Notes under the pieces: generated by a model
Told to the model about the DNA's origin: nothing
The model's input: the letters and a program-made list of their open reading frames with translations, nothing else
The model's database searches: none
In this document: positions 3-37,261 of the stretch, piece by piece
How positions within the stretch are numbered: position 1 is the first letter of the stretch
Layout: each line of letters begins with the position of its first letter
IMG/VR virus record: IMGVR_UViG_3300023107_000002
Coordinates: 4,746 to 68,745 of that record
Strand: one strand, 5' to 3'
DNA length: 64,000 bases
Source: a virus
Lineage: Duplodnaviria > Caudoviricetes
Made by a program: the position numbers and the translations under genes

Positions 3-920
3 ACAGGCAAGCCAACAACACTTGTAGGGTATGGGATAACAGACGGGCAGCCTCTCGACGCAGACCTCACGGCCATTGCCAACATCTCCCCCGCAAACGA
101 TGATATTATTCAGCGCAAAGCAGGCGCATGGGTCAATCGTACCATGGCTCAGTTAAAAGCTGATCTGGGGCTGGTTAAAGGCGATGTAGGGCTTGGTAAT
201 GTGGATAATACAAGTGATGCTAATAAGCCGGTGAGTACTGCGCAGCAAACGGCGCTTGATCTAAAAGCGCCTTTGGCAAGCCCGGTATTTACTGGCACTC
301 CTAAAATAGCGAGTGACACGGTAGCAACAAAGGCTTATGCGAGGTCGGTAGCAGGCTCAGGTGGTAGTGGTGGTGTATCACAAGCGCAGGTTTCTCAGAT
401 TGTTTCAGACTCGCTTAATGCAAGCGCAAAGACCGTTCAAAATGTCGCCCGATCAGGATTTGATACGACCACCACAACGTCCGGGAATATTCTAAAATTC
501 AAATCATTCGCATTTAATGACGGTCCAAATTTTCAATGGAACAAGATAATTACAGACACCACGATATCTCTTAATCCAACGGTATCATCAAGCATCCCGA
601 CTGCTCATGTTCAATTTGTTTCCAGTACAACTTTCGCCCCTGACTTAGCACTTGGTGGTGCAGGGATTCAGAATAAAAGAAAGTATATCTACGAAGGGGC
701 TGCAAATGCATCATGGGTTCTCCCAACCGCCGCACAGTGGAACGGATTTGAATTAACCATACCAAACACAACGAACTTCTCAATTACGTTTAATGTACCG
801 GTTTACATCAATAGTACAACGATTATTTCTGCAGGTTCAATAGCGATACCAGCATTGGCAGGCGCTACTCTCACTAAACAATCTGGAACAGGCATTTGGA
901 TAATTGACACATACCGATGA
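3..920 (+). CDS. Tail fibre protein, 5'-truncated by window edge
   Basis: Frame is open from nt 3, upstream of the ATG at 144; contains the phage fibre repeats KPTTLVGYGITD and GLGNVDNTSDANKPVSTAQQTALDLKA. Confidence 0.85.
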   Translation, partial: TGKPTTLVGYGITDGQPLDADLTAIANISPANDDIIQRKAGAWVNRTMAQLKADLGLVKGDVGLGNVDNTSDANKPVSTAQQTALDLKAPLASPVFTGTPKIASDTVATKAYARSVAGSGGSGGVSQAQVSQIVSDSLNASAKTVQNVARSGFDTTTTTSGNILKFKSFAFNDGPNFQWNKIITDTTISLNPTVSSSIPTAHVQFVSSTTFAPDLALGGAGIQNKRKYIYEGAANASWVLPTAAQWNGFELTIPNTTNFSITFNVPVYINSTTIISAGSIAIPALAGATLTKQSGTGIWIIDTYR

Positions 921-2908
921 GAGCCATACTAACCATATTATCCTTCATAATCACCTCGGCTTTTTCACTTGCTCCGACAGCAACGGTCTACTACGTAAAA
1001 CCCACCGGCGGCACTGGCTCCGGCCTCGACGACGCGAACGCATGGAGCTTTGCTAAGTACAAGTCAATGGAAGGTTCATTGATCCCAGGTGATGCGGTTC
1101 TATTCAAAGCAGGCGAATCGTTCTACGGGTCCATCACAACAAGACCCGGCGTCAATTACAACAGGTACAGCACAGGTGCAAACCCGATCATTACAGGCTT
1201 CACCAGCGTAACCAGCTGGGCAAACGTAGGAACGAACCTTTGGGAGGCAAGTGTGAGTGCAGGAACGTCACTCAACATGCTCACAGTAAACGGCGTGGTA
1301 ACCGAACCAGGAAGATTCCCTAACACCGGTTGGCTGCCAATCATCAACGGCTACGACAGCACGATTGTAACAAATACGCCATCGCCTTCGACCTATTCAG
1401 GTGGCAAAATCGTAACGAAGAAAAAGCAGTGGGTGATTGACAAATGTCAGATAACATCTATTTCAGGCAACAACATCAATTTCACCAACCCTCGCCCAGA
1501 TCCATTAACCGGGTATGAAACTCAGCCAGCAGTAACGAACTGCGGGTTCTTTTTCACCGATCATCCAGCAACACTCGACGTGCAGAATGAATGGTATTAT
1601 ACCAGTGGCACACTCAGGATGTATTCGACGGTCAATCCATCCACTCTCAACGTTAAAGCGGCCACCATAAACACATTGGTTACCCTCGGCGGAGTCAGCA
1701 ATGCACGCTTCGCCACAATCGATTTTCAAGGCTCAAACGAAGACGGAATATTTGTCTCAGGCGGTTCAGGCAACGTGATTGAAAACTGCGGAATTGCTTA
1801 CACTGGCAGAAAGGGTATTTACTCTGTCTTCTCAAGCAATTTCACCGTTCAGAACAACAATATTTCAAATACCAACTGGTCGGGCATAGATGCAATTCTC
1901 GGATCGTATCAATATGTACTCAACAACAACCTTAACAACATTGCGATGCTGCGTAGCCTCTGCCAGCCTAACAACAATGCGAACCACGCTATATGGGCAG
2001 CAGGTAACCACAATTTAATTCAAGGGAACATCGGCAACTACATCGGCTATGTCGGCATCGACATGGGCGGTGACTATGATACAGCCCGGAATAATTTCAT
2101 GGACAACTGGTGTCAGATTGCAACGGATGGCGGCGGGATTTACATGGGTAGTGAACCGAATGGTATTGGCCGACTGATTGAGAACAACACATTCCTGCAT
2201 GGTTACGGCGCTCGTGATGGGTCCGAATATCCTTGGAACACGTTTGACGACAGCTACGGGATCTACCTCGACGAATCAACTGCGGGCGTAACAGTCAGAA
2301 ATAACTTCTCCGCCTTAAACGTAGGCGGCGGGGCATCCCTGCACATGGCGAATAATGTCACGTTCGACAATAATATATTCTACGGCAACGTCCATCGCCA
2401 GGTAAAGTTTCAGGAAGATAACGCTTTCAAGACTCGCATGGTGAATATTGAATGGACGAATAACAAGGCGCATTCACTCAATGGCAGCGAGCAGGTTTAC
2501 GTGTTTTATTCAGTTGACAATTCCAGCAAATTCTTTTCCCGATCAGCCAACAACATTCTCTCTAACCCCGGCAATCCTTCGAACCTGGTTCATGAAATAA
2601 TCGACTATTACGCCGGTGGAGATTACACCTATTCGCTCAATCAGTGGAGAACGCAGTATCCAAACTTCGAAACATTTTCAACCGGTGCGCCTGCTTCGTT
2701 TGGATCAGGTACGCCGCAAGTTCAAATCACTTATTCAGGAAAATACAATGCGCCTCTCGACGGGGTGTATCAATCTATTGACAGCACAATATATCAAGCC
2801 GGGACAATCGTATTGCAGCCGTTCAGCGGGGCAGTATTGAAGCGTACCGGTGATTTCGTACCGGTGGTGACAGTGCCACGGGTGGTTCGGGGATTTCGAT
2901 TTAGATAA
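917..2908 (+). CDS. Right-handed parallel beta-helix protein (pectin-lyase-like, putative depolymerase) with N-terminal signal peptide
   Basis: Asn-ladder repeats (NNNISNT, NNTFLHG, DNNIFYGN), DGGGIY motif, hydrophobic N-terminus MRAILTILSFIITSAFS. Confidence 0.8.
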   Translation: MRAILTILSFIITSAFSLAPTATVYYVKPTGGTGSGLDDANAWSFAKYKSMEGSLIPGDAVLFKAGESFYGSITTRPGVNYNRYSTGANPIITGFTSVTSWANVGTNLWEASVSAGTSLNMLTVNGVVTEPGRFPNTGWLPIINGYDSTIVTNTPSPSTYSGGKIVTKKKQWVIDKCQITSISGNNINFTNPRPDPLTGYETQPAVTNCGFFFTDHPATLDVQNEWYYTSGTLRMYSTVNPSTLNVKAATINTLVTLGGVSNARFATIDFQGSNEDGIFVSGGSGNVIENCGIAYTGRKGIYSVFSSNFTVQNNNISNTNWSGIDAILGSYQYVLNNNLNNIAMLRSLCQPNNNANHAIWAAGNHNLIQGNIGNYIGYVGIDMGGDYDTARNNFMDNWCQIATDGGGIYMGSEPNGIGRLIENNTFLHGYGARDGSEYPWNTFDDSYGIYLDESTAGVTVRNNFSALNVGGGASLHMANNVTFDNNIFYGNVHRQVKFQEDNAFKTRMVNIEWTNNKAHSLNGSEQVYVFYSVDNSSKFFSRSANNILSNPGNPSNLVHEIIDYYAGGDYTYSLNQWRTQYPNFETFSTGAPASFGSGTPQVQITYSGKYNAPLDGVYQSIDSTIYQAGTIVLQPFSGAVLKRTGDFVPVVTVPRVVRGFRFR

Positions 2909-2982
2909 CAATTACTCATGATGGATCAGCGCGGGTATCATGGGTAACAAAGGAAATATAATGATTAAAACAAAATGCTTGT

Positions 2983-3297
2983 ATGCCAAGCCAGGATAAC
3001 ATCGAAAAAATACTCTTCGGCGGCATAATGGCGACACTCGCAGCTATGGTAACAGCAATGTTAAGCAAGGAAGAGATTTGGGCAAAGGTGAAGACTTTCA
3101 TTGCAGGCGTGTGTTGCGGCATTGTACTGGCCTTGATACTTATGAATACCAGCATATCGGAAGCATGGAGAGGTGTAATAATCTCCGGAAGTTCTGCTTT
3201 CGTTTCAACATTCTGGCCTATGCTCGGAAGATTGACAACATCGCTGGTTGAAAAATATCTAAAAAAGAAAGCCGATGACTTTATTCCAAAGCCTTAG
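2983..3297 (+). CDS. Small membrane protein, holin-like
   Basis: 2-3 hydrophobic segments and a basic C-terminus (KYLKKKADD); first of three membrane ORFs. Confidence 0.55.
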   Translation: MPSQDNIEKILFGGIMATLAAMVTAMLSKEEIWAKVKTFIAGVCCGIVLALILMNTSISEAWRGVIISGSSAFVSTFWPMLGRLTTSLVEKYLKKKADDFIPKP

Positions 3298-3568
3298 TCT
3301 TTTGAATGCAAGCGGGTGTGTAGTAGGCATTGTTATGCTGGTTATGAGGCTGATAAAATATGAGATTCCGAGAGCATGGCAGGTGTATATGTTTTTTGTC
3401 TTTGCACTTACTTTTCTTGTGGCAATCGGACAAATGTTCACGTTCTTTTATTTCCCGCGAATTAGCCCATGGTTGAAAATGTGGGCGACCGTTTACTGGA
3501 TAAAAACCATTTGGTTTTGTCACGTCATCAAATCAGTATCAATGCTTAAAAAGAACTTTTATAAATAA
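3275..3568 (+). CDS. Small multi-TM membrane protein (lysis cassette candidate)
   Basis: Three hydrophobic segments, basic C-terminus, overlaps upstream gene. Confidence 0.5.
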   Translation: MTLFQSLSLLNASGCVVGIVMLVMRLIKYEIPRAWQVYMFFVFALTFLVAIGQMFTFFYFPRISPWLKMWATVYWIKTIWFCHVIKSVSMLKKNFYK

Positions 3569-3575
3569 TCGAATA

Positions 3576-4034
3576 ATGGAAAAACTCAAACAATTCTGGT
3601 CAACAAACAAAGTATTTATTCTCGGTTGCCTTTACGCAGCATTCATGGGTGTGCAGGAATTCTTTCTTGAACCTGTGATCGACTGGAAAGCAGTAGGGCT
3701 CGGTTTCGGCGTGGCAGGGCTCAGTTACCTGGCGAAAAACTGGCGAGGTCAGGCTGCATCAATGGTCGGAGTAATTGCAAATTCAATTATCTCATTCGCT
3801 ACACTGCAGGGCGATGCTCAAATGACCGTTTCGCAGTTGATAGGCCAAATCGTAATGGCCGTTGCTTTCTTCTTTCTTTCTGATCCAAAGAGCAGGGGAT
3901 ATGAAAACAGTACCATCATCAAAGCTGCAAAAGTAGACGGCGAAATGATCACACCTGCTGTAGGTACGAATGCCGAAATCAAAAAGCTGGCTGAAGCTGA
4001 GATTAAATACAACTCACAGGCACAAGACTCTTAA
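3576..4034 (+). CDS. Four-TM membrane protein, holin/antiholin candidate
   Basis: Four hydrophobic helices followed by a soluble tail. Confidence 0.5.
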   Translation: MEKLKQFWSTNKVFILGCLYAAFMGVQEFFLEPVIDWKAVGLGFGVAGLSYLAKNWRGQAASMVGVIANSIISFATLQGDAQMTVSQLIGQIVMAVAFFFLSDPKSRGYENSTIIKAAKVDGEMITPAVGTNAEIKKLAEAEIKYNSQAQDS

Positions 4035-4058
4035 AAACAACCATCAATAAAATAAATC

Positions 4059-5123
4059 ATGGCAGACAAGAAAATGACACAGGCGTCACTGAAACGCTGG
4101 TTAGTTGCACAACCGCTTACCAATTACAATGCACTGGCAGATAAGCCGACTGAAGATTCAGTTATCGGCGAAGTAATTATCGACAAGCAGGCTCAGAAAA
4201 TCACAAAGGAAGGCATGACGCTTTACCTAAAATTCAACAAGGTTCCAATGCCGAAGAAATTTCCTGCTGACTGGCTTTCCATGACTGCAAAACAACTTGC
4301 TGCAGCGTTCATTGCAATGATGTTATTGTTCGTTTGCACAACGGCATCTGCACAGCTTACTATTGATCTCGGTACAGTAAAGACAGCGAATAAAAACACA
4401 GCCGTCAATGTTGGGATCTCTTATTTCCGTTCTCTTGATTCGATTTGGAAAAGCAAGGATCTGTACTTCACTGGCAAGCATTCTATATTCTCATTCAATC
4501 CGGAATTCAATGTAAGATTCGGAACGCAGGACGCCTTTAGTTCTATCCAGGCAAAACTTGTCGGATCGTTCATGAGTTTTAAAATGACCGACTTTGAAGG
4601 CTTCGCTTCGCCCGACTTTTCCAAGACGGTAAACGTTTTCCCTGTTGCGCTTGGAGTTGAAACAAATTCAAGTTTCACAACTTACAATGGAATACTTGAA
4701 GCTGGTTACACGCCTTACTGGAAATCAGTGGGTGCAAGCGAATTCCTGAAGCATACCGATTTCTCATTGTTCGTGCAGGGTGGTTACAAGTTCCGCGGCG
4801 ACAGTTCAGCAACTGCCTTAACAGGCGGTGCAAAAGACGAATCATCTGAGAAAGTGCAGTCATCTATCCTTCGCGTTAAAAGCAGCCTCGGAATTGATAC
4901 CAAAGGCATTATTAAAGCACAAGGCTTCACGTTCGGGCTGACTGGTAAAGCAGATGTATGGTACGATGTAATTAACACACGGTTCTATCACAAGCTTGAC
5001 GCAATCGCCCGCTTCTATTTATCCAATGGTGCATGGGTCGATGCGATTTATTCCAAAGGCGCTGGAGCTCCAACATTCAATTCAAGCGAACAATACGGAG
5101 TTGGTTTCAAGGTTCAACTATGA
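4059..5123 (+). CDS. Predicted outer-membrane beta-barrel protein with internal signal peptide (alternative start 4281)
   Basis: Met75 begins MTAKQLAAAFIAMMLLFVCTTASA|Q; alternating aromatic/Gly strands; C-terminal strand YGVGFKVQL. Confidence 0.55.
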   Translation: MADKKMTQASLKRWLVAQPLTNYNALADKPTEDSVIGEVIIDKQAQKITKEGMTLYLKFNKVPMPKKFPADWLSMTAKQLAAAFIAMMLLFVCTTASAQLTIDLGTVKTANKNTAVNVGISYFRSLDSIWKSKDLYFTGKHSIFSFNPEFNVRFGTQDAFSSIQAKLVGSFMSFKMTDFEGFASPDFSKTVNVFPVALGVETNSSFTTYNGILEAGYTPYWKSVGASEFLKHTDFSLFVQGGYKFRGDSSATALTGGAKDESSEKVQSSILRVKSSLGIDTKGIIKAQGFTFGLTGKADVWYDVINTRFYHKLDAIARFYLSNGAWVDAIYSKGAGAPTFNSSEQYGVGFKVQL

Positions 5124-5150
5124 TCTCAGGAACACACATAAATGGTGTAA

Positions 5151-5188
5151 ACAAAAACCCGCAAGCCATTGCTGGTAGCGGGTTTTGT
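5151..5188. terminator. Inverted repeat, bidirectional terminator-like hairpin upstream of HNH gene
   Basis: acaaaa(a)cccgc ... gcgggttttgt. Confidence 0.55.
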
Positions 5189-5221
5189 CGTAAATTGAAG
5201 TCGCTAAACAAAACAATTTAC

Positions 5222-5806
5222 ATGTCAAATCTATGTAATTCCCTTGAGGAAATCTGGAAAGATGTACCCGGCTTCGAAGGGTTGTATGAAGTAAGTAACT
5301 ACGGTCGCGTAAAATCACTTCCTCGCCCGTGGTACAGAAAAAAACAATCAAACATATTAGTTGGCGTTCCGGACATTAATGGCTATCTCAAAGTCCCATT
5401 GAATAATCACGGAAAGTATAGCGTCCGACCTATTCATAGATTGGTTGCAATTGCATTTATTCCAAACCCTGAGAATAAGCCTTACGTGAATCATATCGAC
5501 GGCAATCCCAGCAATGCAAGGGTTGAAAATCTTGAATGGGTAACACCTCTGGAAAATTCGCAGCACGCATGGTCAACAGGATTAATGCACTCTGGCAAAT
5601 CTTCATTCTGGGGTAAATCCGGCGCCAACAGCCATGTAGCAAAAGCTGTGAACCAATATTCAAAAACAGGAGAATTGCTTAACACTTATCCCACTGTTCT
5701 TGCAGCATCCAAAGCAATCGGGTGTGACCATAGTTTTTTATGCAAAGCCGCTAGTGGTAAGCATGAATTCGCCTATGGCTTTAAATGGGAATACGCTAAA
5801 AATTGA
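5222..5806 (+). CDS. NUMOD4-HNH homing endonuclease with C-terminal NUMOD1-like domain
   Basis: EIWKDVPGFEGLYEVSNYGRVKS (NUMOD4); HRLVA...VNHIDGNPSNARVENLEW (HNH); VNQYSKTGELLNTY. Start taken as ATG 5222, not 5033. Confidence 0.9.
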   Translation: MSNLCNSLEEIWKDVPGFEGLYEVSNYGRVKSLPRPWYRKKQSNILVGVPDINGYLKVPLNNHGKYSVRPIHRLVAIAFIPNPENKPYVNHIDGNPSNARVENLEWVTPLENSQHAWSTGLMHSGKSSFWGKSGANSHVAKAVNQYSKTGELLNTYPTVLAASKAIGCDHSFLCKAASGKHEFAYGFKWEYAKN

Positions 5807-5815
5807 TTTGTACAA

Positions 5816-6739
5816 ATGAGAAAACTACTTTTTATTCTACTTATCCCTTTATCCTCACTCGCCCAAAACCCGTTCAGCACGTATGAACTGGTGAAGGATA
5901 GCGTAAAGGTTATCGCAACGGACATCGCGAAAACCAAAGCAGACAGCATCTTTGCCGCCCTGAAAATCCGTATCGACTCAGCGATCACGGTAATCCCGAA
6001 TGTTACCAGTCCGAAAGGCTTAGTAACAACTACCGCACTTGCGCAGAAGCCGGACACAGGAACTTTCCTGCCGCCGATCAGGGCAACGATCAACGCGAAG
6101 GCAAGTATGCAATCGCTTATGGACACGTCAGCAACCAAGCCTGATAAATGCGGAACGCTGGCTGAATTACGGTTAATGCCTGTAAGAGATGGCCGGGTTG
6201 TAGTGGTGGCAGACAAGGCTACTGCTTTTGATAATACCGGAGGGTTTTACCGGTGGAATCCAAACGCAACAGGAGCAGAAGACGCGAAGTATTTAAACAC
6301 AATAATATCCAGCCTTAGCAGTACCGGCCGTTGGATTCGAATGTTTCAAAGAGCGGTCGATATTTCGCCAACGAACGGAACGATGCTCACGCTGGCAGGA
6401 AACTATAAAGAATACACCGTTTCCGGAACAACCAACTCATCAGGGCAAATCGTTTGGAACCTCACAGATGATGGAACGGCGACGGGCAACGCTTTATTCG
6501 CCTCAACTAAAATCATTCTGGTTGAAGTCGATCAGGATCAGCCGCTACCGGAAGATGCGGTAACACCCCGGCGGATCTCGCTTTCTTCCAATCTTAAAGT
6601 ATTGACCTACGGATTCTCAAAACCAAAAATAAACCCGGTAACAACCGCACTGGCATTAATCGGTGTCAGCATTGTTCCGACTCAATCTGTTGCGGCCGGG
6701 GTTCCTGCAACACTCACCATTAAAGGACTTACTCCTTAA
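5816..6739 (+). CDS. Tailspike-adaptor-like protein with signal peptide
   Basis: MRKLLFILLIPLSSLA|Q; GGFYRWNPNATG...TGRWIR segment resembles tailspike N-terminal modules. Confidence 0.5.
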   Translation: MRKLLFILLIPLSSLAQNPFSTYELVKDSVKVIATDIAKTKADSIFAALKIRIDSAITVIPNVTSPKGLVTTTALAQKPDTGTFLPPIRATINAKASMQSLMDTSATKPDKCGTLAELRLMPVRDGRVVVVADKATAFDNTGGFYRWNPNATGAEDAKYLNTIISSLSSTGRWIRMFQRAVDISPTNGTMLTLAGNYKEYTVSGTTNSSGQIVWNLTDDGTATGNALFASTKIILVEVDQDQPLPEDAVTPRRISLSSNLKVLTYGFSKPKINPVTTALALIGVSIVPTQSVAAGVPATLTIKGLTP

Positions 6740-13329: not shown

Positions 13330-13872
13330 ATGAAAACCAAATATTATATCTACACGCTTCACAATCCTTACAACGGAGATGTATTTTATGTTGGTTGTAC
13401 AACGAATCCAGAGAAAAGGTACCAAGGTCACGTCAACCACTCGGTTTATGATTTTACAAAGAGAAAGGCGTACATCCTATCTCTAGAGTGTGATCCTGTA
13501 ATGAAAATAATTGAAGAGGTTATTTGCGACAAATTGAAATCATGTATTGTCGAGTCGTATTGGATTGAGTTGTTCAGAAATGCAGGATACCCGATCACAA
13601 ATCAAAAAACTCCGGACTGGATTAAAGGGGAAATAAAACGGTACACTCCACGGTTTAAAACGATACAGGCCAAAGAAGGGACTTTACTCGCTGATGTTTG
13701 CCTCACTCTCGCTTCTGCAATAGAATCAGTTGAGCAGCTGGAAGAGATGAAAAGTGAAATAGAAAATAAAGAAGGCGCTAAAACATCCGGCAATCTTTCT
13801 GAAAGCGAAATCCCAAAAACACCTGGGAGAAAAGGTTCGCGGCTACCAGTCATTCATCTCAATACAGTTTAA
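13330..13872 (+). CDS. GIY-YIG nuclease domain protein
   Basis: YYIYTL...FYVGCTTNPEKRYQGH...ESYWI. Confidence 0.85.
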   Translation: MKTKYYIYTLHNPYNGDVFYVGCTTNPEKRYQGHVNHSVYDFTKRKAYILSLECDPVMKIIEEVICDKLKSCIVESYWIELFRNAGYPITNQKTPDWIKGEIKRYTPRFKTIQAKEGTLLADVCLTLASAIESVEQLEEMKSEIENKEGAKTSGNLSESEIPKTPGRKGSRLPVIHLNTV

Positions 13873-15016: not shown

Positions 15017-15255
15017 CCTACTCCCACATCCCGCTGATCGACGTTCCGGTAGAAGTATTTATCGCTGAGCAGGACAGACGTTTACGCGAAATAGAACCGC
15101 TGCCAATCGGTAGGCACGACTTCTCCCAGGCTACGTATGACGAACAAGTTCGAAGGGAGATAAGGCTTGAAAACAAGCACAACAAAGTGATCATGCTGCA
15201 GCTGATGATGGACGATGAAATGCTAACTCAAAAAGAAGAATTACTCAAATGCTAG
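15013..15255 (+). CDS. Hypothetical protein
   Basis: ATGA overlap in operon. Confidence 0.65.
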   Translation: MTYSHIPLIDVPVEVFIAEQDRRLREIEPLPIGRHDFSQATYDEQVRREIRLENKHNKVIMLQLMMDDEMLTQKEELLKC

Positions 15256-15335
15256 ACTTCATTCAATTAATCGGCTATCCGGTTGGACTGATCGGATGCG
15301 CGGTGTATTATTTCAGAACAAGTAAATAATTAATC

Positions 15336-15491
15336 ATGATACACGAATTACTAGCAATGGCCGTCACTGATCGGTATAAGAATACGCTTTATTCATTTCC
15401 TTCTGATGGGAGTCCATTGATACCTCGCCGAATGCTCAACCAACGCCAACGCAGAAAATTAAATAGGCAAGTTCCAAATCGCAGGAAATAA
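15336..15491 (+). CDS. Arg-rich 51-aa peptide, not in ORF track
   Basis: Ends ...RRMLNQRQRRKLNRQVPNRRK; A-rich start context. Confidence 0.55.
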   Translation: MIHELLAMAVTDRYKNTLYSFPSDGSPLIPRRMLNQRQRRKLNRQVPNRRK

Positions 15492-15546
15492 TGTGCTTAC
15501 CTGCCTCTCCACGAAAAGACCTATGAAAACTTAGGTCATGTTGGAC

Positions 15547-15575
15547 GGAGCCAGTTGAAGGTGCTGGCTCCTTTT
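15547..15575 (+). terminator. Hairpin with U-tract at the 5' edge of the structured RNA region
   Basis: ggagccag-N9-ctggctcc-tttt. Confidence 0.6.
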
Positions 15576-15727
15576 AAAACGAGTAAAACAAGTGCGTCGG
15601 GTGGAAAAACAGGCACATCAGAACCTGCCACAAACGCTCCTTAGTTCTTTCAAAATAATTGTGTTCCTGCGGCCGCTCCTGACTGTACAGAGGCTTAATG
15701 GCTATCAGGAGAAGCAGGGCACAATAC

Positions 15728-15830
15728 GGGGCGATCTACCAATGGCAGGTGTATCATCAAGGGTTCCGTGGTGCGTGAGGCTAACGCATCGCCTTGATGG
15801 GTAGTAGAGGTTCGATTCCTCTTTGCTCCA
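15728..15830 (+). ncRNA. tRNA-Ala-like RNA with extended anticodon arm
   Basis: Acceptor GGGGCGA/TTGCTCC+A (G3.U70, A73); D-arm TACC-AATGGCA-GGTG; T-arm AGAGG-TTCGATT-CCTCT; 5-nt variable loop; 37-nt insert in place of the 7-nt anticodon loop. Confidence 0.75.
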
Positions 15831-16010
15831 CAATACGAACGGATGGCTTAAGTAAGATTTCTTCGACAGTGTTGCTGAATGAAAAAAGAACCATTGAGGG
15901 AATGCAGAAAAGAAGCATGCAGGATCGCACCCTGCTCCGTTCGCCGTAAAAATTCATGGAAGTTTTTTGCTCTTAGGAGTTTTTTGGGGAACGTTCGAAT
16001 CGTCCTGACA

Positions 16011-16033
16011 GGCTGGAAAGACAGCCACTTTTT
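16011..16033 (+). terminator. Hairpin with U-tract at the 3' edge of the structured RNA region
   Basis: ggctg-gaaaga-cagcc-a-ctttttt. Confidence 0.5.
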
Positions 16034-16052
16034 AACCCTTATCAATTCAACC

Positions 16053-16223
16053 ATGCTCAAAACAATCAAAGCCATGCTACTGCTAATCTTAATGCCTGCC
16101 ATTCTACTATCAGTCGCATTGGTCGGCTACTTCGCAATCAAAGAACCGCTACCCGAACCGGACGAACCGCTGCATGAAGAATTGGATGATACAGTTTGGG
16201 GCGGAACATTAAATAATAATTAA
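16053..16223 (+). CDS. Small single-TM protein
   Basis: MLKTIKAMLLLILMPAILLSVALVGYFAIKE; start moved from 15879 to 16053. Confidence 0.6.
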   Translation: MLKTIKAMLLLILMPAILLSVALVGYFAIKEPLPEPDEPLHEELDDTVWGGTLNNN

Positions 16224-16234
16224 AACGAAATACC

Positions 16235-16666
16235 ATGGGAACAAGAGCCGACTTCTACATCAGAAATGAAAAATCAGAACCCATAATGGAATGGCTGGGG
16301 TCTATTGGATTCGATGGATATCCAGACGGGATTGCGCCCGGTGTTTTATATGCCACTGACGAAAATAAATATAGGGAACAGGTTAAATTATTCCTGCAGA
16401 TGGAACAAGGGACGTTGCCTGAGCGCGGTTGGCCATGGCCATGGGATAATAGTCAAACTACTGATTTCTCTTACATATTTGAGAATGATAAAGTACTGGC
16501 TAGTTCGTTCGGCTACCCACTCTTTGATCCGCTTTCCGACATTGAATCTGACGAAGAAGATTTTGACGCTCAGAAAATGACAGGCTTTTTCCCAGACATG
16601 AAGGGCGTTCAAAACGTCCGATTTGATGCAAAGGGATCTGGGATGATAATTATTAATGCAAAATAA
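16235..16666 (+). CDS. Conserved phage protein (MGTRADFY...DGYP family)
   Basis: MGTRADFY, DGYPDG and WPWPWDNSQTTDFSY motifs. Confidence 0.75.
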   Translation: MGTRADFYIRNEKSEPIMEWLGSIGFDGYPDGIAPGVLYATDENKYREQVKLFLQMEQGTLPERGWPWPWDNSQTTDFSYIFENDKVLASSFGYPLFDPLSDIESDEEDFDAQKMTGFFPDMKGVQNVRFDAKGSGMIIINAK

Positions 16667-17410: not shown

Positions 17411-17651
17411 CATCTACTGCCCCGAAATCGACGATTACAAACCGCATGAAGTCGAGTTTAGTATCGAGGGGAAATATGTGCCTGAATGCAAGTACATGCG
17501 AAACGGAGATCCTGGGTACGAAGCGGAATACCCGGAAACGATTATCCATATCATCGAAGGAATTGATCTTAAGACGCTTAGTGCGTTCGAAATGAAGCGG
17601 ATCGAAAAGGAATGTTTTGATAGCAGGATGGTGGAGGAGTGGGAGTATTAA
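17394..17651 (+). CDS. Hypothetical acidic protein
   Basis: Operon-coupled ORF; GDPGY motif. Confidence 0.65.
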   Translation: MTHTVDIYCPEIDDYKPHEVEFSIEGKYVPECKYMRNGDPGYEAEYPETIIHIIEGIDLKTLSAFEMKRIEKECFDSRMVEEWEY

Positions 17652-17661
17652 AATAAAGAAA

Positions 17662-18291
17662 ATGAAAATGAGTGAAATTAATCTGGAAGCTAAGCCTAGA
17701 AATTTTTGGGTAAAGAATAAACAGCTTTTAAAAGAAGCGGTAGAGTCAGGTTTGCCATACAATGAGATAGCCGAAAAGTTTGGAACATCATTCGGGTCCG
17801 TCGCCAATGCGGTTTGGAGGCATAAGGTAATAACAAGAATCCCGCTTTATAAAACCGAAAAAGAACTTGTTACTAAACGAGTTTCTATTCATGAAATAAC
17901 TAACTGCTGGAACTGGCAAGGCGCTGTTAGTTCGAGCGGCTACGGTACGGTCAGGGTTGCTGGCGTTGCTTGGCAAGCGCACAGACTTTCTTTTTCGATA
18001 TTCAAAGGGGATGTCGGCGACCTCCATGTTTGCCATCATTGCGACAATAGAAAATGCGTAAATCCGAGTCACTTGTTTTTAGGCACACGCCAAGACAATA
18101 TGAAAGACATGGTGAAGAAAGGCCGCAATGTCGTAACAAATAGAAAATTCGCAGCTCATCAAATTGTGTCAATTCGCAAAGCAAAAGAAAATGAGGGAAT
18201 CAGCTATTGCGGACTTGGTAAGAGATACGGGGTATCGGCAGAGGTGATTAAATGTATTTGCCTTCGCACCACATACAGAGAAGTAGTTTAA
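17662..18291 (+). CDS. HNH homing endonuclease with N- and C-terminal HTH
   Basis: CWNWQGA..SSGYG...AHRLSF...VCHHCDNRKCVNPSHLFLGT..DNMKD. Confidence 0.92.
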   Translation: MKMSEINLEAKPRNFWVKNKQLLKEAVESGLPYNEIAEKFGTSFGSVANAVWRHKVITRIPLYKTEKELVTKRVSIHEITNCWNWQGAVSSSGYGTVRVAGVAWQAHRLSFSIFKGDVGDLHVCHHCDNRKCVNPSHLFLGTRQDNMKDMVKKGRNVVTNRKFAAHQIVSIRKAKENEGISYCGLGKRYGVSAEVIKCICLRTTYREVV

Positions 18292-26726: not shown

Positions 26727-27071
26727 ATGGCACTACAAGTAAAGGGAACAGTTGACACGGTATTCCCGACCGAAACGGTAGGAACCGGATCATTCCAGAA
26801 ACGCCCGTTCTGGCTGACTATCGAAGAGGACACGAAATATCCTCAGAAGATCCAGCTCGAATTCACCCAGGCAAAATGCGTCGAGCTGGACAAAATCAAA
26901 CCAGGAATGAAGGTCGAAGTCGATTTCAATATCCGCGGAAACGAGTATAAGGGCAAAGTGTACGTCAACCTGCAGGCATGGAAGATCGCTGTGATCGGTG
27001 GATCTGCATCGCAAAAAACTGAACTGGTCGATGAGATTAATAACGATTCAAGCGAGAGTTTGCCCTTCTAA
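26727..27071 (+). CDS. DUF3127 OB-fold protein (SSB-like)
   Basis: FQKRPFWL...YPQKIQLEFTQ...VEVDFNIRGNEY...VNLQAWKI; acidic tail ending LPF. Confidence 0.9.
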   Translation: MALQVKGTVDTVFPTETVGTGSFQKRPFWLTIEEDTKYPQKIQLEFTQAKCVELDKIKPGMKVEVDFNIRGNEYKGKVYVNLQAWKIAVIGGSASQKTELVDEINNDSSESLPF

Positions 27072-27129
27072 AATCTTCAATACCCCCTGCATCAACCCGG
27101 TGCAGGGACAAAACGAAAAAAGAGAAAAT

Positions 27130-28197
27130 ATGAAACTAGCATCAGCAGAACGAATCTTAAAGATTGAACCAATCGAGGGAGCCGATTTAATCCAGAAGGC
27201 TACCGTGCTTGGTTGGGAACTGGTAATCAAGAAAGATGAATTCAAAGTCGGCGATCTGGCTGGCTACATCCAAATTGATACCGTTGCGCCTGAAACACCG
27301 CAATTTGAATTCCTGCGCGAAAGGAAGTTCCGTGTAAGGACTATCAAACTCAGAAAACAAATCAGTCAAGGCTTACTGGTTCCACTTCCTGAAGGAAAAT
27401 GGAAGGAAGCCGATGACCTAACCGATGCGCTTGGAGTTAAGAAGTTTTCCAAAGACAACGAGGTGGAAGTTCGCCCAAGAGTGCCGAAAGTCTGGTACAA
27501 GAAGTGGTGGTACATGTTCAAGTACAACGTATTGGTCAAAGTGTTTCCGGGCCTCAAAACTTTCAATCGGGTTGCCTTTCCTAAACATCTTGTTCCGATT
27601 ACGGACGAAGAAAGGATTCAGAACATTCCCGGCGTTCTGGAAACATACAAAGGCAGGGACTTCATTGTTTCTGAGAAGTTGGACGGAAGCAGTATCACCA
27701 TCATTCATGAAGTAAGCAGATTCGGCAAACACAAATACCGCGTTTGCTCCCGCAGGTTTGAACTGTTCAACACAAACAACGAATGGCATCGTGTAGTCAA
27801 GTCCACCGGTTTTGAAGAAAAAGTCAAGGCTATCTGCTATCACAAAGAAGTCGGGAGTAACAACGTCATCGTACAGGGTGAGTTCATCGGGCAACCACAA
27901 GGAAACAAGTACCAGTTGGAAGCGAACGAGATTCGGTTGTTCAACATCTACGTGAATGGTAAACGCCTCCCGCAAGATCAATTCTACCGCATCTGCGATG
28001 AACTCGAAATCCCATGCTGCCCGATGATCGGCAACCTGTCTTTAAACTTTACTCTACCAGAGATTATGCAATTCGCTGAAGGAAAATCACTGCTGAATAA
28101 AACGGCTGAGCGTGAGGGGTTAGTATTCCGATGCATTGACGACAACATGAGTTTCAAGGTGATCAGTAACAAATGGCTCTTAAAAAATCAGGAGTAG
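27130..28197 (+). CDS. RNA ligase (Rnl2/DRB0094-like)
   Basis: N-terminal LAS..RI..IEPIEGADLI; motif I SEKLDGSS; VQGEF; LFNIY; EREGLVFR; FKVISNKWLL. Confidence 0.92.
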   Translation: MKLASAERILKIEPIEGADLIQKATVLGWELVIKKDEFKVGDLAGYIQIDTVAPETPQFEFLRERKFRVRTIKLRKQISQGLLVPLPEGKWKEADDLTDALGVKKFSKDNEVEVRPRVPKVWYKKWWYMFKYNVLVKVFPGLKTFNRVAFPKHLVPITDEERIQNIPGVLETYKGRDFIVSEKLDGSSITIIHEVSRFGKHKYRVCSRRFELFNTNNEWHRVVKSTGFEEKVKAICYHKEVGSNNVIVQGEFIGQPQGNKYQLEANEIRLFNIYVNGKRLPQDQFYRICDELEIPCCPMIGNLSLNFTLPEIMQFAEGKSLLNKTAEREGLVFRCIDDNMSFKVISNKWLLKNQE

Positions 28198-36587: not shown

Positions 36588-36652
36588 GGTTCTAGTTTGT
36601 TTACTGCCTTTCGGCAGTCATCACAATTTGAGGGACTTTGAACCCGTAGAAC

Positions 36653-37261
36653 CTAATTGATACCGGCAATAATTTTACCTGTATTCAGGTCTTTATAGAT
36701 TAACCTATAATCGTGTATGCGATCAATCCAAATCAGGTCCAGCAATTCAACGTTATCTGAGCGAAAAGCAATCTTTTGAGTGAACCTGTAGTAAACATTT
36801 GAGGCTGTCTGGTCAACTCCGCCCCATTGTTCCGGCTGCCAATCTCCGTTTGCCTGTATCTGCCACCCGTGATCCTTACCAATTTTAGCGAAGATGTTTA
36901 ACACGTCTGCCCGGTATTTGTAATCGGTTAAAGTGTGCGCTGTTTGGCGTGAGCATTGAACGTACTTAGCACATGCAACCTCTTTTACTTCTCCATTTGG
37001 CAGAACATCGAGCGCATGTGAAGTATGAATATACATATCGTCCATTGAATCAAAATAGCCGTATTGTCTGCGTTTAACGATGTTTTCTACCTCGTTGTAA
37101 GTTGGTCCGAAGATCCATTTAACATCTACTGAGTTGCCACCCGCGAAATTTTCAGACTTAACGCTGAATTTAGTTGTTGGGTATTTGGCTTTCAAGATTG
37201 CTTTAATCTCTTTGGCTGCCTGTGCTGATTCTGATTTGATTTTCATTTTGCTTGTTACCAT
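36653..37261 (-). CDS. LPD29 (large polyvalent protein-associated domain 29) protein
   Basis: AKEIKAILKAKYPTTKFSVKSENFAGGNSVDVKW..GPT...GYFDSMDDMY. Confidence 0.8.
   Translation of the reverse strand: MVTSKMKIKSESAQAAKEIKAILKAKYPTTKFSVKSENFAGGNSVDVKWIFGPTYNEVENIVKRRQYGYFDSMDDMYIHTSHALDVLPNGEVKEVACAKYVQCSRQTAHTLTDYKYRADVLNIFAKIGKDHGWQIQANGDWQPEQWGGVDQTASNVYYRFTQKIAFRSDNVELLDLIWIDRIHDYRLIYKDLNTGKIIAGIN

Follow-up and report, generated by a model that had tools for sequence, protein, structure and literature searches.

The region at approximately positions 15576-16033 of the analysed DNA is read here as a terminator-bounded non-coding cassette with a short array of RNAs derived from transfer RNA (tRNA), which would be processed into small RNAs; we assign this reading a probability of about one half. 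The DNA, called the window in the following, is a stretch of 64,000 nucleotides (nt) and represents most of a 68.7-kb virus contig from IMG/VR (CheckV completeness of 56%). The centre of the cassette is an alanine-identity tRNA mimic, in which a rod of 17 base pairs (bp) takes the place of the anticodon arm. It is preceded by a long hairpin (H1) and followed by a second tRNA-shaped module (module 2); the coordinates are collected in Table 1. An earlier sequence-only reading had already placed a tRNA mimic within a larger non-coding, multi-domain structured region, and this is borne out by the several modules and by overlapping open reading frames (ORFs) without conservation.

The alanine-type mimic and its neighbouring modules

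The mimic starts with G15728, 3 nt after H1. Its acceptor stem GGGGCGA/TTGCTCC comprises 7 bp including the pair G3:U70 (G15730:T15827) and is followed by the discriminator A73 (A15830). Together with G1:C72, G2:C71 and G4:C69, this corresponds to the identity set of tRNA-Ala. The D-arm TACC-AATGGCA-GGTG shows U8, A14, G18 and G19, a variable loop of five nt gives the pair A15:U48, and the T-arm reads AGAGG-TTCGATT-CCTCT. Since U8, A14, G18-G19, A15:U48 and the T-loop TTCGATT are retained, all elbow-forming bases are present, and the body is that of a canonical tRNA with a 7-bp acceptor, a D-arm containing G18-G19 and a T-arm with a TTCRANY loop. All modelled pairs (33 of 33) are standard. CCA is not encoded by the mimic; tRNAs of Bacteroidota-type phages usually lack an encoded CCA as well (PMC10879173). 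The mimic was detected solely by ARAGORN with relaxed settings, while the default settings found 0 tRNAs in the window and the Rfam tRNA model RF00005 (gathering threshold of 29 bits) gave no match to it at E<=10.

The rod consists of 9 bp, a 6-nt 5' bulge GUUCCG, 8 bp and a 7-nt loop GAGGCUA, and its upper helix showed pair probabilities of 0.93-1.0. The apical loop has A33 instead of U33 and U37 instead of a purine. Due to the exchange of the anticodon arm for the rod, the mimic is unable to decode. The relaxed ARAGORN result could also be explained by an intron-bearing tRNA-Ala(CGC), from which the removal of 15758-15788 would leave the loop UUCGCCU on a 5-bp stem and whose ends a DRB0094-like ligase might seal. 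The alanine anticodon obtained in this way agrees with the G3:U70 identity, and an RNA ligase is encoded at 26998-28197. However, the presumed sites 15757/15758 and 15788/15789 lie inside helices, and there is no bulge-helix-bulge, which would place both sites in 3-nt bulges separated by 4 bp, the 6-nt 5' bulge being the sole one. Furthermore, 31 nt are far below the size of a group I intron, and position 37 would be a C. In its intron mode, ARAGORN called a short intron about once in every 23 kb of phage DNA, and its readings of the other long mimics were inconsistent. Of 36 records with long mimics (described below), PF09414 exceeded its cut-off in three, and the ligase is absent from the complete phage L349. 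Altogether, an intron is very improbable. Based on the same 3 of 36 records, a general link between long mimics and RNA ligase was dropped.

Module 2 begins 6 nt after A73 of the mimic on the same strand. An 8-bp stem (CGAACGGA/TCCGTTCG) closes the module and encloses a central arm, which is long, as well as a T-like arm GCAGG-ATCGCAC-CCTGC (15919-15935), which abuts the 3' strand of the closing stem. The hairpin of GCAGG (15919) and CCTGC (15931) had been pointed out before and is present as claimed. A strict scan for tRNA geometry required a stem of 7 Watson-Crick pairs and, directly next to its 3' strand, a stem of 5 bp carrying a loop of 7 nt. On both strands of the window (128 kb in total), it yielded a single site, namely 15837/15919-15942. 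At a background of 1.2 per 128 kb, a placement 6 nt after the mimic has a probability of p~0.006, which is a post hoc value.

The outer stem of H1 measures 11 bp and has one bulge; an internal loop GGCCG/AA connects it to an inner stem of 7 bp, and the loop of 22 nt holds GAGGCUUAA. The long stem of TTGTGTTCCTGC (15659) and GCAGGGCACAA (15714) with the inner CTCCTGA (15676) and TCAGGAG (15705), as proposed from the sequence alone, was hence recovered. Among 200 shuffles, one was as stable as H1, and its pair probabilities within the full transcript amounted to 0.95-1.0. H1 and the rod share further details: GAGGCU(U)AA occurs in both loops, and both helices contain a 5' bulge ending in CCG. 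These common features may be due to chance or may represent a binding motif. In addition, the loop of H1 contains, 4 nt past GAGG, the start of an ATG frame of 26 codons (15699-15779, + strand), whose stop is the TGA of the apical loop of the rod.

All strings quoted by the sequence-only reading are found at the positions given there, and their significance was assessed with 1000 dinucleotide shuffles of 444 nt. Each copy of the 9-mer CACAATACG spans the end of one module up to the first G of the next one, so its position at module boundaries stands. The repeat itself is no more than expected by chance, as a direct repeat of at least 9 nt appeared in 28% of the shuffles (p=0.28). The same holds true for the 8-mer complements ACCTGCCA (15623) with TGGCAGGT (15743) and CGAACGGA (15836) with TCCGTTCG (15936), which are present, while three perfect inverted 8-mer pairs were observed compared to 1.66 expected (p=0.26). 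Since both frequencies are at chance level, neither the 9-mer nor the two 8-mer pairs prove anything singly. The fold of the whole region was also unexceptional compared to the shuffles, with z=-1.49 for the + strand and z=-1.13 for the - strand.

These results bear on the question of whether the region is one RNA. The sequence-only reading had considered either a single multi-domain RNA of ~450 nt, to be compared with the large families GOLLD and ROOL, or a switch. As a single unit, the region could be a regulatory RNA with several domains or the leader of the genes that follow (processing or antitermination); as a switch, pairing of 15623-15630 with the D-arm at 15743-15750 would unfold the mimic. 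For the switch, the alternative pairing, when forced, reached -142.0 kcal/mol compared to -138.0 kcal/mol for the forced cloverleaf, corresponding to costs of 1.4 and 5.4 over the minimum free energy, and had a probability of 0.2. Such energy models omit the tertiary contacts of tRNAs, and the complementary 8-mers are at chance frequency. A single RNA would agree with the long-range complements I3, I4 and I7, whereas the whole-region z of -1.5 is ordinary, no Rfam family matched at E<=10, the region is absent from 50 related phage records, and the robust elements are all local. With a terminator-like hairpin on one side and the gene of a small membrane protein on the other, the position is like that of an unrelated structured gap in L148 and would fit a leader, but terminator T2 separates the cassette from the gene downstream. 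Altogether, a single RNA, leader or switch appears improbable, and the GOLLD/ROOL-like form was not upheld; neither GOLLD, ROOL, HEARO nor any other large non-coding RNA of Rfam gave a covariance-model match. What argues for an array instead of one RNA is that each module has a closing helix of its own, that the spacers are 3 and 6 nt, and that two modules show the coaxial geometry of acceptor and T-arm. The elements robust in the ensemble are H1, the upper rod, both T-type arms and T2. Compared to the sequence-only reading, its observation is partly confirmed and its interpretation partly supported.

Table 1. Positions of the cassette features and of the flanking genes in the window
Feature	Position	Strand	Basis
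51-aa (amino acid) ORF, left boundary of the gap	15336-15491	+	ORF list
Terminator-like hairpin T1: GGAGCCAG, 9-nt loop, CTGGCTCC, then TTTT	15547-15575 (hairpin to 15571)	+	read from sequence; inverted repeat I1
Bracket repeat of 27 nt, degenerate left copy	15599-15625	+	family D1, 74% identity
Hairpin H1	15659-15724	+	fold, z=-3.1
Alanine-identity tRNA mimic	15728-15830	+	read from sequence, relaxed ARAGORN
Rod in place of the anticodon arm	15754-15800	+	folds, -20.6 kcal/mol
Second copy of the 9-mer CACAATACG	15829-15837	+	repeat; first copy 15720-15728
Second tRNA-shaped module (module 2)	15836-15943	+	fold, strict geometry scan
Tandem repeat of a U-rich 17-mer (two copies, 81% alike)	15954-15986	+	family D3
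Weak hairpin with canonical T-loop sequence, GGAACG-TTCGAAT-CGTCC	15987-16004	+	family D4
Terminator T2: GGCTG-GAAAGA-CAGCC, then TTTTT; right copy of the bracket repeat	16011-16033	+	terminator scan
Gene of the 56-aa membrane protein, which bounds the gap on the right	16053-16223	+	homology of residues 59-114

Boundaries and genomic setting

The cassette lies in a gap of 560 nt (15492-16052), which is non-coding as judged from the protein searches: the overlapping ORFs have no homologues, and conservation is confined to the part belonging to the 56-aa gene. For ORF 15592-15804, zero homologues were found among 5.8 billion proteins. In the case of ORF 15879-16223 (114 aa), a full phmmer scan showed that only residues 59-114 are conserved, with homologues of 45-54 aa. 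As these homologues align to residues 59-114 only, the real gene is the 56-aa membrane protein. The minus-strand ORF 15848-16102 had no homologue in the searches. The overlapping ORFs hence do not speak against the sequence-only reading, which conserved and translated frames would have refuted. The 51-aa ORF on the left, a putative gene, gave no match in Pfam or PHROG.

On the left side, the cassette is preceded by T1, which does not appear in the terminator scan, as its 9-nt loop exceeds the limit of the scanner. On the right side, the closing hairpin expected from the sequence alone (16011-16026, then TTTTT) was found as T2, with a pair probability of 1.0 in the full transcript. The second T-loop-like sequence GTTCGAAT was likewise verified at 15993; the hairpin containing it shares 10 of 12 bases with the T-loop region of the mimic and gave a poor call with very relaxed ARAGORN settings. 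A 27-nt imperfect direct repeat (15599-15625 and 16011-16037, 20 of 27 positions alike; p=0.02, 300 shuffles) brackets the region. Its left copy resembles T2 and is incapable of forming the hairpin. T2 is the sole part of the cassette with a recognisable relative, which was found in L148 (5644-5684) with three compensatory changes in the stem. It also precedes a small membrane ORF there, and the primase of this phage is 50% identical. The bracket repeat together with this relative suggests that ~385 nt (15626-16010) were inserted as a discrete cassette at a pre-existing terminator. The L148 phage itself contains a structured gap of 330 nt (5360-5690) before the small membrane ORF, which has the terminator alone in common with the window. 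It comprises an 8-bp closed multi-branch (AAGCGGGG...CCCCGCTT) enclosing a T-loop-like hairpin CAAG-GTTCGCAAT-CTTG.

The contig encodes the gene set of a temperate tailed phage, including integrase, YopX, YqaJ, RusA, SSB, GIY-YIG and HNH homing endonucleases and a primase-helicase. The latter shows an identity of 34-38% to homologues of Flavobacterium, Riemerella and Tenacibaculum phages, and the host probably belongs to the Bacteroidota. The free-standing GIY-YIG gene (13330-13872, +) and HNH gene (17617-18291, +) flank the cassette at a distance of ~1.7 kb on each side, which is reminiscent of segB within the tRNA cluster of T4. No genes for FemAB, the MprF C-domain or SmpB were found in the 68.7-kb record, which is 56% complete.

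The RNA ligase mentioned above (+ strand) comprises a PHA02142 OB-fold and a PF09414 domain and belongs to phrog_968. Its score of 100.6 bits with the DRB0094 family model TIGR02306 lies under the cut-off of 151 bits. Ligases of the DRB0094 family are reported to be 140-fold enriched in Bacteroidota phages with tRNA-linked theta ribozymes (PMC10879173). A twister type-P3 self-cleaving ribozyme was identified at 36588-36653 on the minus strand (58.8 bits compared to a gathering score of 39.9, E=2.7e-10). It is located 20 kb from the cassette, directly downstream of a minus-strand ORF with an LPD29 domain (36653-37261). One phage hence carries an RNA ligase, a twister ribozyme and a tRNA mimic; a polynucleotide kinase was not seen near the ligase. 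Apart from twister-P3, Rfam gave nothing at gathering score in the window and nothing at E<=10 in 15200-16300.

Similar RNAs in other phages and known systems

Long tRNA-likes were searched in IMG/VR with a degenerate pattern (GGGG start, U8, D-loop AATGG.A, 45-75 nt, GGTTCGA.TCC), which matched 36 loci. Based on covariance model and folding, many of the matches are tRNA-likes of 101-117 nt with a paired acceptor, intact D- and T-arms and an enlarged central region. G3:U70 and A73 were present in about half of them, a share that is biased by the GGGG fixed in the pattern. In 9 of 15 distinct examples, tRNAs or tRNA-shaped modules lie within a few hundred nt, with spacers of 8-14 nt in the clearest arrays. 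Compared to the window mimic, L346:8872-8983, L349:2121-2229 and others are alike in length range, G3:U70, A73, D- and T-arms and the enlarged central arm, while their central arms cannot be aligned with the one described here. L346 scores 56 bits with the Rfam tRNA model, whereas the window mimic does not score. The same layout as in the window was found in a 570-nt gap (1795-2367) of L349, a complete 69-kb phage: a long hairpin (~2001-2037), a tRNA-like of 77 nt (2041-2117; 45.6 bits with Rfam tRNA), the alanine-type mimic of 109 nt after a spacer of 2 nt, and a T-loop-like hairpin GCGGG-TTCGCCC-CCGC (~2299-2314). In the literature on long-arm or intron-bearing phage tRNA-likes, no description of such a class was found.

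A further set of tRNA-likes with 112-117 nt occurs inside large phage tRNA arrays (L345:4005-4120, L371:11794-11909(-), L344:11398-11509(-), L356:5928-6043(-), L367:303-419(-), L369:7513-7629 and L342:7805-7921). A small hairpin followed by ACAGCA(A/C), or CTGCAA in L342, separates their D-arm from a short anticodon-like hairpin, and their intron readings by ARAGORN are inconsistent.

By analogy, the nearest described counterpart of the cassette is the rnaD-rnaC pair of T4 (species 2 and species 1), which likewise consists of non-decoding RNAs lying head to tail with spacers of 1-6 nt in a tRNA-type array. The modules H1, mimic and module 2, with their spacers of 3 and 6 nt, show the same head-to-tail order of non-decoding units. 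T4 rnaD and rnaC comprise 119 and 139 nt, are 6 nt apart and form the end of the T4 tRNA cluster; the 3' end of rnaC consists of a T-arm CCGGG-TTCGAAT-CCCGG and a 7-nt acceptor-type strand. The maturation of both RNAs is carried out by RNase P. In T4 as well as in the phage described here, a gene for a GIY-YIG homing endonuclease is located nearby. In contrast, there is no sequence similarity between the T4 RNAs and the cassette, the T4 RNAs follow eight real tRNAs while the window has no decoding tRNA, and it is the window mimic that has retained the complete body of a cloverleaf together with alanine identity.

The second comparison is the tRNA-like domain (TLD) of transfer-messenger RNA (tmRNA), which also combines the G3:U70 alanine identity and a T-arm with a long helix in place of an anticodon arm. 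Topologically, the anticodon-less alanine tRNA-like equals this domain with a closed P2 helix. Unlike tmRNA, whose D-loop lacks such a structure, the window RNA forms a genuine D-stem of 4 bp with G18-G19 in the loop, and it contains no tag frame. Based on these differences, and since the tmRNA mode of ARAGORN found nothing, an assignment as tmRNA or TLD-only RNA was rejected. The tmRNA models of Rfam cover only the T-arm with 12-13 bits compared to gathering scores of 47-70 (cyano_tmRNA 12.8 compared to 70). For a TLD-only molecule, strong inhibition of tmRNA is reported, perhaps via titration of SmpB, and the TLD-only tmRNA of Mycobacterium phage DS6A is discussed as a possible titrant of this protein (PMC4131195). 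An inhibition of this kind would be a concrete decoy mechanism for the mimic. Another likeness exists to Bacteroidota gut phages with theta ribozymes, in which a structured RNA follows a CCA-less tRNA and a DRB0094-family RNA ligase is encoded (PMC10879173). A theta or hepatitis delta virus-like ribozyme after the mimic, which would show a nested P1/P1.1/P2/P3 fold with a catalytic C and cleave no more than 5 nt from the tRNA end, was discarded, as neither a loose descriptor built from the supplementary examples of PMC10879173 (applied to 15590-16033) nor Rfam revealed one.

Several observations weigh against the array of processed tRNA-derived RNAs. A blastn search of the cassette against 50,697 phage records gave no match, and exact and degenerate patterns for T-arm/acceptor and terminator hit the L148 contig only within IMG/VR. 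The single-sequence covariance model R1 found nothing in the 50 related phage records, and in 151 Bacteroidota genomes it found ordinary tRNAs only. None of the loci retrieved via YopX, the primase-helicase, the 143-aa neighbour and the 56-aa membrane protein carried the cassette (nhmmer and blastn); the best neighbour identity among these loci was 55%, and the closest relatives by protein are P0002 (neighbour gene, 60%) and P0122 (membrane protein, 61%). The probability of the acceptor stem of the mimic was near 0 in the energy model of the full transcript. Module 2 possesses neither the GG of the D-loop nor the T54-A58 pair, its loop ATCGCAC is non-canonical, its placement value is the post hoc one given above, and relaxed ARAGORN reads it as an intron-bearing tRNA, a type of call that is often false positive. 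Finally, no convincing promoter, either of Bacteroidota type or of sigma-70 type, was found inside the gap.

Some of these findings would also be expected for the decaying remnant of a phage tRNA cluster, in which one tRNA was disrupted by the insertion of a hairpin of ~31 nt and which, having lost its function, is tolerated between two genes. The mimic escapes both default ARAGORN and the Rfam tRNA model, the series from module 2 to the T-loop-like hairpin is progressively less tRNA-like, and the element is absent from related phages. The T-arm of the mimic is identical to that of ordinary Bacteroidota tRNA-Gln. Moreover, a homologue of the 143-aa neighbour gene (16235-16666) occupies the central part of a cluster of 19 tRNAs (13-6230) in L188 (IMGVR_UViG_3300015360_000089), an unrelated high-GC phage. 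However, 33 pairs without a mismatch, including the rod, together with the intact elbow bases would be unexpected in a decaying tRNA unless the insertion was very recent, and long mimics of this alanine type are found again in phages that are not related. We therefore consider decay possible, but would not expect it.

Proposed processing and meaning

Transcription, processing, charging and function of the cassette are what we infer from its architecture. The coaxial geometry of acceptor and T-arm is what RNase P, RNase Z and the CCA-adding enzyme bind to as their recognition feature. The cassette would be transcribed as one precursor, in which RNase P of the host would cleave on the 5' side of G15728 and probably also of G15837, and the ends would be completed by 3' trimming and by the CCA-adding enzyme. 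In this way, two or three small stable RNAs could be freed, as in phage tRNA clusters and in the case of T4 rnaD-rnaC. Since recognition by alanyl-tRNA synthetase (AlaRS) depends on the acceptor stem and not on the anticodon, the mimic would be expected to be charged by AlaRS once CCA is added. The product would be a non-decoding alanine-type look-alike, which may act as a decoy or titrant of SmpB, EF-Tu, AlaRS or tRNA-directed nucleases.

A more far-reaching form of this reading is a functional operon of tRNA mimics, in which the alanine-chargeable, anticodon-less RNA with its 17-bp rod would serve as a tag-less mini-tmRNA or decoy against SmpB, EF-Tu, AlaRS or a defence nuclease. The common features of H1 and rod would then be a protein-binding signature, and the look-alikes in other phages would form an undescribed, widespread class with it. 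We regard this version as doubtful.

The gain from the present finding is modest, as it consists of flanking modules that are real in a single sequence. Phage tRNA genes are usually read as a supplement for codons or as a replacement of tRNAs cut by defence systems. An RNA with an alanine-accepting end and an elbow, but with a rod for the decoding arm, directly serves neither purpose, which points to mimicry of the tRNA-binding machinery. Processed mimic arrays in phages would thus be a testable model in terms of RNase P cuts, charging by AlaRS and binding of SmpB or EF-Tu, and they may help to annotate the long gaps that appear 'empty' in the genomes of phages.

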